Shown: one piece after another, positions 26,701-29,700 of the stretch
Layout of the letters: each line of letters starts with the position of its first letter
Position numbering within the stretch: the stretch's first letter is position 1
Source of the DNA: Escherichia coli
Lineage (GTDB): Bacteria > Pseudomonadota > Gammaproteobacteria > Enterobacterales > Enterobacteriaceae
Length of the DNA: 64,000 nucleotides
Direction: 5' to 3' (one strand)
Assembly (NCBI RefSeq): GCF_013315695.1
Contig: NZ_CP054353.1
Program-made: the position numbers

Positions 26701-29700
26701 ACCAGGGAAGTTCAGTGTCGTATTGCGGATGGTATCTGAGTGCACTGCCACACAAGTGGCAGGTGTAGTGAGCATAAGGTGCGGCCTGTGCAGTACGGGC
26801 GCCCGTCAGACGTCCGTTGCCATCAAGAGCGATAAAGGATTTTGCGTACATAGTCATATTCCTTAGCCGCCAGACGACACGCAGGCAACAGCCGTCCCGG
26901 TACGGGCAGCGTGGTCAGGGTGTGAATGGCGGTTCAGTTAAAATCTGGACTGGAGTTTGGGTAAAGCAGGCTGGTTGCTGTTACAGCACTGTGGTTGTCA
27001 CACAATGGAACACTGACGTAAAAAACAGTCAGTGGGCGAGTGGATACATCGTTGCCGCCAGACAACAACCCATACTTTTGGTTTGCCGGATATTGGCGCG
27101 CCAGTCGTGCTCAACTCCGGCTACAGCCAAAATTGCGCTCACCGGTGCAGTGAGCTTTGGTATACTCCTTCGCCAGATAGTCAGCACGTTCCAGCACTTG
27201 CTGAAAGCCGGTGTCATCATTACGCGCCAGCCACACCGCCGGCCAGGCCGGAAAATGCACCAGCGTGGCATGGCACCCGACATCCACTCCCAGGGCACTG
27301 CACCACGCCTGTTTAATCATCCCGGCCAGAGACTCCGGAGCGCGGTAATCACCGGCACGACACCAGGTATCCCGGTTGACCAGCAGCATCAGGTGATAGT
27401 GTTTTTTACCTTTGCACTCCCCAAACTCCCGGGCCCAGACGTAATGCAGGGTTGTGGGATGCACGCGTTTACCTTCCCGATGCTTACGTTTCTGGTAAGC
27501 GTCGATTCGGGCTTTCAGGGCATTGATGAAGCGGGATATCACAGCTGCGTCCGTTGCTGCCGGTACATCCGGGAAACGCAGGTCAACCCGCAATGCCGTC
27601 AGGCGGGGATGAACATTCAGTGCGTGCCGCACCGTCTCACGAATACGTTGCTGCCAGAAGGGGTTGTATTTGTAGGTCATGGTTAAATCTCCGTATGGTT
27701 CATACGGAATAGCCACGTCGTAAAAAATGCGCAGAGTCCCTGAAGTGACCTCCGGCAGGACACTGTCTCAGGCACTCTGTGATAACCCTAACGGTCGTCT
27801 CCGGACTGACGGTTGAATTTTCAGCGTTGTTTTTTTAATGTAAAAAATCGGTTACGGGTAAGGCTGTGAGGAGGGAGTGATGGTGATACGCAAAAAGAAG
27901 TGCAGGGACTGTGGAAACGCGATTACTCATAATACAGTGTGTTGCCCGTATTGTGGTTCTGTCGACCCCTTCGGCTACTACCGAAATACAGACCGTATCG
28001 TTACCATACTGCTGGCGCTGATTATTGTGGTCCTGCTGACTACTGTCAGCGTCAGTGTGTGTATACTGTGTAGCTGGTGAGATAACGGTTCATGTATCCC
28101 CTGAGCTGACAGTGTACCGTGTATATTAAGCGTAACCGACAGGTTCTCCTTCATACCATATTAAATTTTTCCAGGTATTGCCGCTGCCTTATTTCGTCCC
28201 ATAAAGGAAAACTCATCTGGGTTTCTGACAAATACGCGAAACTCACAGCCCCTCAATATCAACCACACGTTGTAAGCCGGTAATACCTGAAAATCAGCCT
28301 ATTACCGCCCACGCCTCCGGCACCATTCCCTTTTGATTTCGAATTCTTTGTTGTCGCTATACCGCTTAATGTTCCCGGTCCTCCGGTGCAGATAACACCG
28401 GACTTATCGTAGCGCTGGCTAAAAGTTCAGGTGACCAGAAGGAAGCAGGAACACGATCGTAAAGTTTGCGGTCAGTTCCGTCAGTCGGTGGGCAACCGCA
28501 GAGTTACGGGCTTCCAGGTCCACAGGAGTGAGTCTATAACGCGTGTGAAAAATCATTTTTTCTGGCGTTGACAGAACACATTACAGGCTGCCACTTACCC
28601 GGTGTCCCGCAATACAGCCTTAGTGTTCCGTTATCGGGGATCCGGACGCACCGCAACAACCGGGGAAGTATTTCTGGTTTAGAGCTGTGTCAAGAGGGAT
28701 TTCTCAGCCCCTCACTCACCGGCTCAGTCTCAGAGCAGGAGCATTAATACGCTCAGTTCATGTCTTATACAGGAATTGGCACAGGGGGAGCTGGCGTGTC
28801 ACTGCTGATTTTACGCATCAGCGTTCATGTATTTGCACTCTGATACAGAATGCTTCACAGCGCTCTGTTACCGGAGAGATTTACTCTCTTAGCTTACTCT
28901 GGCAAATCCTTTACGTTACTCTCTGATGACTTCTTATATTTATAATACCAATCAGACAGCCTTATCCCATCGGTGATATCAGTCTCCTCCTCGCCAGGAA
29001 CGGGCTGACTCACTGTAACCACCTCCGAAAACAACTCTGCAATTATCAGAACGCTAGTTTTCCCCTTGTCTCACGAAAGTCCTCCCTCCTTTATCGCGCG
29101 TGCGTGCGGAAGCATCTTTTCGCAACAACCACCCGGGATTCCGCTACGGCTCTGCCATCGCAATCCCCCCGTTTATCTCCGGACAGCCACATTCCCGATT
29201 ATTTTTTACGTTTCTCCCCGGTTGTTATGCCAGTGAAGGTGGCGCGCTGTTTTCATGACCACACCGGCTGGTTTAACAACATCCGGAGGAACATTCTCAT
29301 GGCTACCCCTGTTTCGCTGATGGATGACCAGATGGTCGACATGGCGTTTATCACTCAACTTACCGGCTTAACCGATAAGTGGTTTTACAAACTCATCAAA
29401 GATGGGGGCTTTCCTGCCCCCATCAAAATGGAGCGCAGCTCCCGCTGGCTGAAAAGTGAAGTGGAAGCCTGGCTGCAGGCGCGTATTGCACAGTCCCGTC
29501 CGTAATTTCTGACCGTTATCCGTTCACCCGCAGCAGACGTAATCTCCGGCCTGCCGGCGGCATTCTGCTGCCTGTTATATCCCCGTGAGGAATATGAAAA
29601 TGAAACAACAGTATCAGACCCGCTACGAATGGCTCCACGAAAGCTACCAGAAATGGCTGACCGGCTTCACCCGGCACGCCGTATCCTGGGGCGTGTGTCA

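Follow-up and report, generated by a model that had tools for sequence, protein, structure and literature searches.

A palindrome lies just upstream of a YagK/YfjJ gene in a 64,000-nucleotide stretch of Escherichia coli DNA (hereafter the window), and its position raises the question of whether the symmetry serves a repressor on duplex DNA or a fold in the messenger RNA. The initial annotation had offered both readings, with the operator in its title. YagK/YfjJ proteins belong to the uncharacterised 'y-ome', and literature searches for YfjJ, YagK, DUF3296 and 'inovirus Gp2' found no functional or regulatory study. Their genes reside in CP4-57/CP4-6-type islands in most E. coli and many Enterobacterales, and the family is present in about 3,700 of 5,426 complete E. 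coli genomes, often in several copies. As set out below, the palindrome probably works in the mRNA, as a cis-acting hairpin that prevents initiation of translation, and not as a duplex-DNA element.

The palindrome and the Shine-Dalgarno sequence

The perfect 7-bp inverted repeat proposed at 27691-27707 was confirmed, with CCGTATGGTTCATACGG present on the plus strand, and its distance of 11-27 nt upstream of the ATG is correct when counted from the A at 27680. On the minus strand, which is that of the gene, it reads CCGUAUG-AAC-CAUACGG. The repeat itself is real, but its length had been understated: perfect pairing extends to 8+8 bp (TCCGTATG/CATACGGA at 27690-27708), and a wobble between U27709 and G27689 provides a ninth pair, so that the full hairpin exceeds the reported palindrome by 2 nt on each side (Table 1). 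The ATG start matches the RefSeq annotation of a 99.9% identical record, and orthologues of 189 aa begin at the same ATG. An upstream GTG at 27716, which would place the palindrome in coding sequence, was rejected as the start because orthologues and RefSeq use the ATG; the reading frame upstream of the ATG is not conserved.

Table 1. Positions of the YagK/YfjJ gene and of the elements in its 5' leader.
Feature	Position	Strand	Remarks
YagK/YfjJ ('inovirus Gp2 family') gene, 189 aa	27111..27680	-	HUH-nuclease-like fold
Shine-Dalgarno GGAG	27689..27692	-	wholly within 3' arm, 8 nt upstream of ATG
Candidate SD-sequestering hairpin	27689..27709	-	8 Watson-Crick pairs and one U·G
Hairpin 5' arm UUCCGUAUG	27709-27701	-	
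Hairpin loop AAC	27700-27698	-	
Hairpin 3' arm CAUACGGAG	27697-27689	-	
Outer helix, E. coli form (predicted)	27678..27717	-	MFE and centroid RNA folds
U-rich block TTTTTTAC	27720..27727	-	10 nt 5' of hairpin; conserved
Terminator-like leader hairpin	27732..27779	-	12-nt arms (11/12 paired) and inner stem
Sigma-70-like promoter candidate TTTACA-16 nt-GAAAAT	27817..27844	-	consensus scan, 9/12 match

Judged by count alone, a single repeat of this kind is unremarkable. Dinucleotide shuffles yield 1.3 ± 1.1 perfect 8-bp inverted repeats with a 3-nt loop, and the window has three; for the 7-bp repeats counted in the same way the figures are 4.8 in shuffles and 15 in the window. The predicted folding energy of the 27-nt hairpin is -9.9 kcal/mol (z = -5.5), a value reached by none of 200 shuffles, and it is the comparative evidence of its conservation that marks it as more than chance. 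No second copy of the palindrome occurs in the 64-kb window, even at two mismatches, and a promoter scan called no sigma-70-like promoter over it. It was rejected as an intrinsic terminator, as the T-run at 27727-27720 lies on its 5' side and neither strand has a T-run after it. Rfam gave no match for it at the gathering threshold in a search of the whole window, or at E <= 10 in a search of 27400-28200. The sole Rfam match in the window is IS102 RNA, away from the palindrome.

In predicted folds of the E. coli leader the four nucleotides of the Shine-Dalgarno (SD) sequence, 27692-27689, are paired with probabilities of 1.0, 1.0, 0.96 and 0.82. The outer helix is formed by CGUGG (27717-27713) and UA (27711-27710), which pair with UA (27685-27684) and CCAUG (27682-27678), and it takes in the AUG (27680-27678), with a predicted pairing probability of 0.94-0.96. 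This helix is perfect (8 bp) in a variant with an 8-nt hairpin loop (L005), and in another variant (L003) a change of G to A at 27716 converts its G·U pair into A-U. The GG of the SD sequence was predicted to be paired at ~1.0 in 22/22 leaders folded, comprising E. coli variants and 17 other genera. On these models a stable local stem pairs both SD and AUG, as expected of a cis-acting SD-sequestering hairpin.

The structure resembles the fourU and ROSE thermometers, in that a short hairpin of a virulence-island gene pairs the SD GGAG with UUCC, but here the stem is a perfect 9-pair one with an outer helix. Predicted SD pairing is constant, above 0.8, from 20 to 60°C, so that the occlusion does not melt at physiological temperature. 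For this reason, and in the absence of an Rfam match, an RNA thermometer was rejected. A hairpin that is closed over this range would therefore require a separate opener.

Conservation of the hairpin

Both arms are invariant across the E. coli variants. A 3-nt loop is carried by about 3,388 E. coli genomes and an 8-nt loop by 771, with the arms unchanged. Because the E. coli copies are 88-99% identical overall, arm invariance within the species is weak evidence of function. One variant locus (L001) was considered as a cassette junction at the palindrome; this was rejected, since the locus arose by deletion and carries an IS1414 insertion.

The comparison with other genera is more informative. 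Loss of the palindrome in homologues had been named in the initial annotation among the grounds for abandoning it, and the comparison went the other way: the hairpin is conserved. Orthologues in 17 other genera, at 60-68% protein identity, keep the structure with a different sequence (CCGGT…ACCGGAG), and the SD remains paired; at the RNA level UUCCGUAUG/CAUACGGAG in E. coli corresponds to CCGGU/ACCGG(AG) elsewhere. Three or more stem versions are present among the 22 leaders, with SD pairing kept in all of them, and without exception the orthologues have the SD at the end of the 3' arm. Between genera, total hairpin length varies from 19 to 32 nt, and asymmetric bulges and 3x1 internal loops occur. 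In the alignment 84.6% of cells are paired, compared with 26-44% when the partner is slid. Two leaders (L009 and L013) carry a double change from G-C to A-U, and where only one side of a core pair has changed, the result is a sense-strand G·U in 7 cells and C·A in 2. The covariation score of the non-E. coli group is modest, being matched by 23/500 shuffles, and double changes affect only one pair in the seven-pair core and 3/9 pairs tested overall. These alignments indicate that pairing, rather than sequence, is conserved in homologues.

The apex behaves differently from the stems. Apical TATGAAC is conserved in sequence across genera while the stems vary, the exception being L009 and L013, in which TATGAA is replaced by GTGAA. 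A conserved upstream open reading frame starting at the apical ATG was rejected because its frame varies between genera: it is in frame in most of the other genera, forms ATG-TGA or a short stopped reading frame in others, and is out of frame in E. coli.

When a covariance model (R1) was trained on the non-E. coli leaders, its only matches were the training sequences themselves, and it missed the E. coli form; the homology of the E. coli hairpin with those of other genera therefore rests on position and context. The model likewise missed the alpA leaders, so that a CCGG hairpin in the alpA leader is unsupported as a paralogous copy. A scan of viral contigs gave one locus only.

Burial of the SD extends beyond the orthologues. 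Mean predicted SD pairing is 0.85 in the hairpin leaders and 0.53 in 43 neighbouring non-alpA genes, and a mean P(paired) of at least 0.7 is reached by 20/20 of the former and 10/43 of the latter (MWU p 1.6e-7, which is optimistic since the sequences are phylogenetically related). Family members at ~40% identity bury the SD in 15/27 cases (p 0.011), with unrelated stems; they include L021, L022, L024, L028, L036, L037, L044 and K-12 yagK. The alpA genes of the same islands also bury the SD, again with unrelated stems. The proposal that an RNA hairpin sequesters the SD is thus supported on three counts: the SD GG is paired in the predicted folds of all 22 leaders, stem sequence shifts between genera with pairing kept, and occlusion exceeds that of neighbouring genes. 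One distant relative carries its SD in the 5' arm instead.

A proposed translational block and its alternatives

The mechanism we propose is that the two 9-nt arms would pair in the 5' leader of the mRNA and lock GGAG in a 9-pair stem, while in the E. coli form the second, outer helix would pair the AUG too. The 30S subunit would be kept off, and the gene would be translationally silent by default. This supposes that transcription starts upstream of the 5' arm, as a start inside the hairpin would yield a native mRNA lacking that arm, and that occlusion lowers translation. Relief might come from a trans-acting protein or RNA on the apical UAUGAAC, from 30S standby on the U-rich stretch, or from processing. 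SD occlusion alone leaves the conserved apical TATGAAC and the upstream TTTTTTAC unexplained.

The leader upstream of the hairpin contributes a possible second barrier. Cross-genus conservation begins abruptly at (A)GTAyTTTTTTAC, with TTTTTTAC marking the 5' edge, and beyond it the DNA is unrelated cargo in each genus. The U-rich motif occurs 11 times in the window (3.2 expected), and in orthologues it also follows the yfjJ terminator, upstream of alpA. In E. coli the terminator-like hairpin is followed by CGCA and then by the U-run; this part of the leader folds at -28.6 kcal/mol and the whole predicted leader has a z of -3.0. Changes in the arms of this hairpin in one variant (L004) keep pairing, as U·G and G-C. 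It fits an intrinsic terminator better than the palindrome does, but the 4 nt that separate it from the U-run kept it from being called in a strict scan for terminators. In other genera a conserved terminator before the T-run was not found consistently. The promoter candidate further upstream is partly conserved in E. coli variants; it is weak, as sites at 9/12 number only 2 against 1.3 expected. Transcription from it would place both hairpins within the transcript. With the SD lock directly behind a terminator-like hairpin and U-run, expression would need read-through as well as opening of the SD hairpin, and read-through could plausibly be provided by the island's AlpA-type antiterminator.

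The conserved motifs left over by SD occlusion also figure in an alternative: the hairpin, together with (A)GTAyTTTTTTAC and/or the apical TATGAAC, would be recognised and nicked as single-stranded DNA by the HUH-type YagK/YfjJ protein. It would serve as an origin or as an end of the IS200/IS605 or REP kind, extruded from one strand, and its overlap with the SD would be secondary. The usual substrates of HUH enzymes are hairpins that carry a conserved nick motif, and the gene adjoining the hairpin has the HUH and catalytic Tyr motifs of an HUH nuclease, HYH and YLAK being invariant. A sequence-conserved loop and upstream motif with variable stems, and cross-genus conservation that starts exactly at the motif, fit such a site. 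So would the second motif copy that orthologues carry beside a hairpin just downstream of the gene, except that this copy is an ordinary terminator tail. We consider this reading unlikely. In all orthologues the 3' arm terminates on the SD, and a nick site would not call for the burial of the SD by unrelated sequences in distant relatives and alpA. Moreover, the 64-kb window holds no second hairpin copy or end, and in E. coli the gene is always embedded in one island backbone and shows no hint of moving independently. The Pfam Rep match, at 26.4 bits, falls short of the 27.8-bit threshold, and Foldseek matches are weak. Were it true, the widespread YagK/YfjJ family would be an active Rep- or transposase-like enzyme with a cognate site, and SD occlusion would be a second function or would make enzyme synthesis depend on the state of the DNA.

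The same two conserved motifs can be taken as a promoter within or just before the hairpin loop, the hairpin then insulating the gene against outside transcription by folding back, as in IS10/IS50: native transcripts lacking the 5' arm would be translated, and read-through from the variable upstream cargo would be silent. TTTACG (27725-27720) and the apical TATGAA (27704-27699) are conserved at fixed spacing across genera, the unrelated cargo upstream in each genus makes read-through a realistic threat, and the stem is too stable for unaided opening. However, the spacer between the two elements is 14 nt, outside the sigma-70 range of 16-18 nt; TATGAA lacks the -7 T and is GTGAA in L009/L013; the promoter scan found nothing there in E. 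coli or at two orthologous loci; and the resulting transcript leader would be only about 10-15 nt. These points make insulation quite unlikely.

A duplex-DNA operator, at which a repressor dimer (the product of the gene itself, AlpA or a further HTH protein from the island) blocks transcription, would account for perfect dyad symmetry close to the gene start and for the conservation of both arms in E. coli, and a co-evolving repressor could explain arms that change together between genera. The island does carry HTH genes (alpA), though nothing ties them to this site. The reading is nevertheless distinctly improbable. Fixed half-site spacing is not observed: a 5-bp insertion separates the half-sites in 771 genomes with the arms untouched, so that arm spacings of 3 and 8 nt are both common in E. 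coli, and across genera overall length ranges over 19-32 nt with 3x1 internal loops and asymmetric bulges. Where one arm alone changes, G·U is preferred on the sense strand only, and the palindrome overlaps the SD rather than a promoter called by the scan and is present in a single copy in the window.

Another primary role in RNA, such as shielding the 5' part of the mRNA from RNase E, serving as an RNase III site or directing processing, with little effect on translation, is very improbable; a conserved, stable stem that probably lies towards the 5' end of the mRNA, after a single-stranded, U-rich, RNase E-like stretch, would suit it, but it leaves the constant SD partner and the pairing of the E. 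coli AUG unexplained. It is also highly unlikely that the repeat is a functionless chance product carried by a young, recently spread island, as repeat counts only about 2-3 times shuffle expectation and the weakly informative invariance of E. coli copies would allow, given a structure kept with different sequence in 17 genera, a compensatory change, and a loop-length polymorphism that leaves the arms intact.

Comparison with known systems and the proposed silencing of the island gene

An SD-sequestering hairpin is a textbook mechanism, yet it is undescribed for the YagK/YfjJ family. Leader hairpins that occlude the SD of mobile-element or toxin genes are known from IS10/IS50, where they underlie fold-back inhibition, and from the tisB and hok mRNAs, which are activated by standby binding or processing. 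As in those systems, a stable cis hairpin on a horizontally acquired element is predicted to pair the SD, here together with the AUG, a single-stranded stretch lies just upstream, and the stem is too stable for breathing alone. The product here is HUH-like, neither one of those transposases nor a toxin, and there is no sequence similarity.

Translational operators provide a second parallel. The MS2/R17 coat protein acts on the replicase start and the Ff gene V protein on the gene II leader; here too the ribosome-binding site is that of a replication-type gene, annotated 'inovirus Gp2 family', and the conservation of the apical UAUGAAC is what contact by a protein would produce. In Ff, however, the operator lacks structure and is U/G-rich, whereas the site here is a hairpin, and no gene V homologue was found near the YagK/YfjJ gene.

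Among HUH systems, the CRESS-DNA virus origin places a stem-loop with NAGTATTAC just upstream of rep, IS608 combines TTAC with a subterminal hairpin, and RAYT proteins act with REP sequences. The E. coli locus likewise has a hairpin directly upstream of an HUH-fold gene, with variable stems and a conserved (A)GTAyTTTTTTAC and loop; it differs in that this motif is not part of the loop, the position of the hairpin is bound to that of the SD, a second end is missing, and nothing points to nicking or mobility.

In the Pseudomonas aeruginosa AlpA cassette a promoter element is followed by an intrinsic terminator (PMC7969949, PMC9371919); GGGACG is the AlpA binding element in that species. The E. 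coli leader is similar to such AlpA/Q-type cassettes in having a promoter-like site and then a terminator-like hairpin with a U-run before the SD hairpin, and alpA is in the same island, in other genera directly downstream of the gene; the palindrome itself is not the terminator, since the U-run precedes it.

That the gene and alpA both lie behind leader structures predicted to bury the SD, and here behind a terminator-like hairpin as well, suggests that they are tightly silenced and switched on only by a specific signal. Such silencing would explain the absence of a known phenotype. Disruption of the stem would offer a simple handle for switching the gene on, and the conserved leader of about 60 nt is a place to seek the regulator or the substrate of this HUH-nuclease-like protein.

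Predicted pairing of the Shine-Dalgarno sequence in the leader palindrome

The 7+7 inverted repeat noted in the initial annotation at 27691-27707 is present in the window as a single copy, also when up to two mismatches are tolerated. The palindrome is longer than reported, with 8+8 perfect pairs and U27709·G27689 as a ninth pair of the stem. The minus-strand sequence here is ...GCGCAUUUUUUACGACGUGGCUAUUCCGUAUGAACCAUACGGAGAUUUAACCAUGACC..., and the Shine-Dalgarno (SD) sequence GGAG (27692-27689) lies inside the 3' arm CAUACGGAG, 8 nt upstream of the ATG at 27680. RNA folds contain an outer helix formed by CGUGG(C/U)UA and UAACCAUG, by which the AUG is also paired. 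The 27-nt hairpin has a folding energy of -9.9 kcal/mol (z -5.5). Perfect 8-bp inverted repeats with a 3-nt loop number 3 in the window vs 1.3 +/- 1.1 in shuffles, and 7-bp inverted repeats fifteen vs 4.8; the repeat count by itself is not beyond chance, and the case depends on comparison.

Features of the leader and its island setting
Feature	Position	Strand	Remark
YagK/YfjJ gene	27111-27680	-	189 aa; PF11726, E 5.7e-48
8+8 palindrome	27690-27708	-	
U-run UUUUUUAC	27727-27720	-	
Terminator-like hairpin	27779-27732	-	12-nt arms, -28.6 kcal/mol
Sigma-70-like promoter candidate	27844-27817	-	TTTACA-16-GAAAAT; upstream of terminator-like hairpin
Octamer TTTTTTAC, example sites	27018-27025; 27720-27727; 27840-27847; 29202-29209	-; -; -; +	
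Palindrome ACTGAC-tgTTTTTTAC-GTCAGT	~27012-27035	-	in spacer between yfjJ-like stop and first DUF7828/zinc-ribbon gene
Two DUF7828/zinc-ribbon genes			downstream of YagK/YfjJ gene
Divergent 67-aa ORF	27877-28080	+	CxxC...CxxC, hydrophobic C-terminal segment; no Pfam match; RefSeq labels hypothetical or zinc-ribbon
alpA leader	29202-29310	+	
AlpA	29299-29505	+	island gene
YfjI/DUF3987	30524-32077	-	island gene
IS66 element, complete unit (tnpA/tnpB/tnpC)	23513-25693	-	in island; abuts DUF7828 genes
Rfam IS102 RNA match	34031-34267	+	66 bits

Conservation of predicted SD burial across genera

Orthologues sharing 60-68% protein identity were found in 17 other genera, including Hafnia, Kosakonia, Tatumella, Rosenbergiella, Siccibacter, Salmonella, Serratia, Klebsiella, Pectobacterium, Rouxiella, Cedecea and Enterobacter. 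Their leaders carry a different, longer hairpin, e.g. CCGGUAAUGGUUAUGAACGAUAACCCACCGGAG, whose outer stem likewise ends on the SD. Both G residues of the SD had a pairing probability of ~1.0 in 22/22 leaders folded, with stems differing between genera, which supports the suggestion that the palindrome is an SD-sequestering RNA hairpin. Conservation in homologues, when checked, extended to the E. coli variants and all 17 other genera. We think it rather probable that the hairpin works in the mRNA leader as a cis-acting translational lock, in which translation would be held off by pairing of the SD. SD-sequestering hairpins are a well-known kind; this one is itself new, matching no Rfam family in a scan of the window or a permissive scan of 27400-28200, and our literature search found no paper describing it.

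In an alignment of 19 non-E. coli leaders, 84.6% of outer-helix cells were paired vs 26-44% with the partner slid by 1-3 columns, and one pair changed from G-C to A-U in two genera. One-sided changes in the core (six or seven pairs) gave sense-strand G·U in 7 cells vs C·A in 2. The shuffle control was exceeded only moderately (23/500), because the non-E. coli group is closely related. Across leaders the hairpin varies from 19 to 32 nt in total length, with 3x1 internal loops and bulges. Its apical (T/G)ATG(A/G)A(C/T) (window 27698-27704; orthologue leaders A3/A4) is nearly invariant while the stems differ. From the apical ATG, most other genera gain 10 in-frame codons, some have ATG-TGA or a short uORF that is stopped, and the window has MNHTEI-stop, ending 2 nt 5' of the main ATG.

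SD occlusion was measured alike for all sets: within a -60..+21 context, pairing probabilities were averaged over the best SD tetramer. The mean was 0.85 for orthologues (>=0.7 in 20/20) vs 0.53 for 43 neighbouring genes with alpA left out (10/43), with a Mann-Whitney p of 1.6e-7 that is optimistic since the sequences share ancestry. For 27 distant family members (~40% identity; K-12 yfjJ and yagK among them) it was 0.65 (15/27; p 0.011). Their SD stems are unrelated, e.g. UCCUAUGA...UCAUAGGA, AUUCCUUUGAG...CUUUGAAGGAAU and CCUGAG...CUCAGG, and in one member the SD sits in the 5' arm. The SD of K-12 yfjJ is predicted not to be buried (P 0.21). In K-12 yagK (NC_000913.3 292948-293040) the SD ACAGGU pairs with CCUGUAU ~45 nt upstream as part of a compound hairpin (P ~0.84-0.99), making this gene a convenient test case in a model strain. 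The alpA gene of other genera adjoins the yfjJ orthologue directly downstream, and its SD has P 0.99-1.0 in 8/10. In the window, the alpA leader has TTTTTTAC followed by UUUCUCC; the latter forms pairs, across an inner hairpin, with the SD GGAGGAA ~70 nt downstream (-35 kcal/mol, z -2.3), and K-12 alpA likewise buries its SD. SD occlusion recurs independently of sequence, as an RNA-level function predicts.

Alternative readings of the hairpin

Hairpins in DNA are acted on by HUH enzymes. The hairpin could double as a DNA site of the YagK/YfjJ protein, which has an HUH-nuclease-like fold and would then be an uncharacterised HUH enzyme. Protein comparison gave values of 8.2 for SIRV1 ORF119, 8.1 for MVM NS1, 7.9 for Bocavirus NS1, 7.8 for B19 NS1, 7.3 for AAV5 Rep, 6.8 for Helraiser, and 6.4 each for RepB and RAYT with REP hairpin. 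H94-Y-H96 and Y168-L-A-K171 are invariant, Foldseek and sequence searches gave weak matches, and the Pfam Rep match falls slightly below threshold. In a 99.9% identical record, RefSeq starts the gene at the same ATG and names its product 'inovirus Gp2 family protein'. SD occlusion leaves two conserved sequences unexplained, the apical TATGAAC and TTTTTTAC in the flank. However, the stem stays linked to the SD in all lineages, distant relatives and alpA have unrelated SD stems, the window has no second copy of the hairpin, and there is no sign of independent gene movement; we consider this dual role unlikely.

The initial annotation's other proposal, a repressor operator in duplex DNA, is disfavoured by variation within E. 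coli. Approximately 1.1 kb around the palindrome was matched in 3,702/5,426 complete genomes (median two copies), and in variants with identity down to 88% the 27 nt 5' of the ATG are invariant save for loop length. Two variants have a loop of 8 nt (AACGAAAC) rather than 3 nt, both arms unchanged; the 3-nt form occurs at 6,242 places in 3,388 genomes, and 771 genomes have the 8-nt form. A single dimeric DNA-binding protein is hard to reconcile with half-site spacing that shifts by 5 bp between common forms, whereas the change is harmless to a hairpin. The outer helix pairs perfectly in the 8-nt-loop variant (-21 kcal/mol), and a G->A change in E. coli variant L003 converts a G·U to A-U. An RNA thermometer was rejected, as the pairing is predicted to persist without change between 20 and 60 C.

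Upstream leader and island setting

The setting is a CP4-57-like E. coli island. Cross-genus conservation begins abruptly ~62 nt 5' of the ATG at (A)GTAyTTTTTTAC and extends across the hairpin as far as the start codon; upstream lies unrelated cargo. In the window, a strong hairpin precedes the U-run by a 4-nt spacer, CGCA, and the two resemble an attenuator or terminator, placed after the predicted promoter and before the SD hairpin, an arrangement that would place the translational lock behind a terminator-like module. Substitutions in the arms of this hairpin in E. coli variant L004 keep pairing via U·G and G-C. The predicted 141-nt leader folds as two modules, this hairpin and the SD hairpin (z -3.0). 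In orthologues, a canonical terminator lies between yfjJ and alpA and has the same (A)GTAyTTTTTTAC motif as its tail; upstream of yfjJ in other genera, a hairpin before the motif was not consistently found. AlpA of P. aeruginosa works as a Q-like antiterminator, by which an intrinsic terminator located downstream of its promoter is bypassed (PMC7969949; PMC9371919), and by analogy it is reasonable to suppose that the island AlpA may control the terminator-like module.

The octamer TTTTTTAC occurs 11 times in the window vs 3.2 expected (11 reached in 0/100 shuffles), with no longer motif apparent among the 11 sites. Four precede island genes in the sense orientation (yfjJ-like twice, a DUF7828 gene and alpA).

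In one locus (NZ_LT599825.1, 1150-2620) an IS1414 insertion, flanked by a 9-bp duplication (TACGACATG), separates the U-run from the hairpin, and the yfjJ-like ORF is reduced by deletion to a 22-codon stub, with hairpin, SD and ATG kept. A 683-bp low-coverage contig of a Paenibacillus assembly (NZ_WACP01000054.1) carries an E. coli-type leader of the 8-nt-loop form plus the gene start at 93% identity, and is probably contamination. The cargo just 5' of the yfjJ-orthologue leader differs from genus to genus, with OLD/AAA_15-21 ATPases, Phd/ParE, DUF4942, a methylase and an AcrVA2-like protein, and the region ending at the leader looks like a defence or cargo hotspot.
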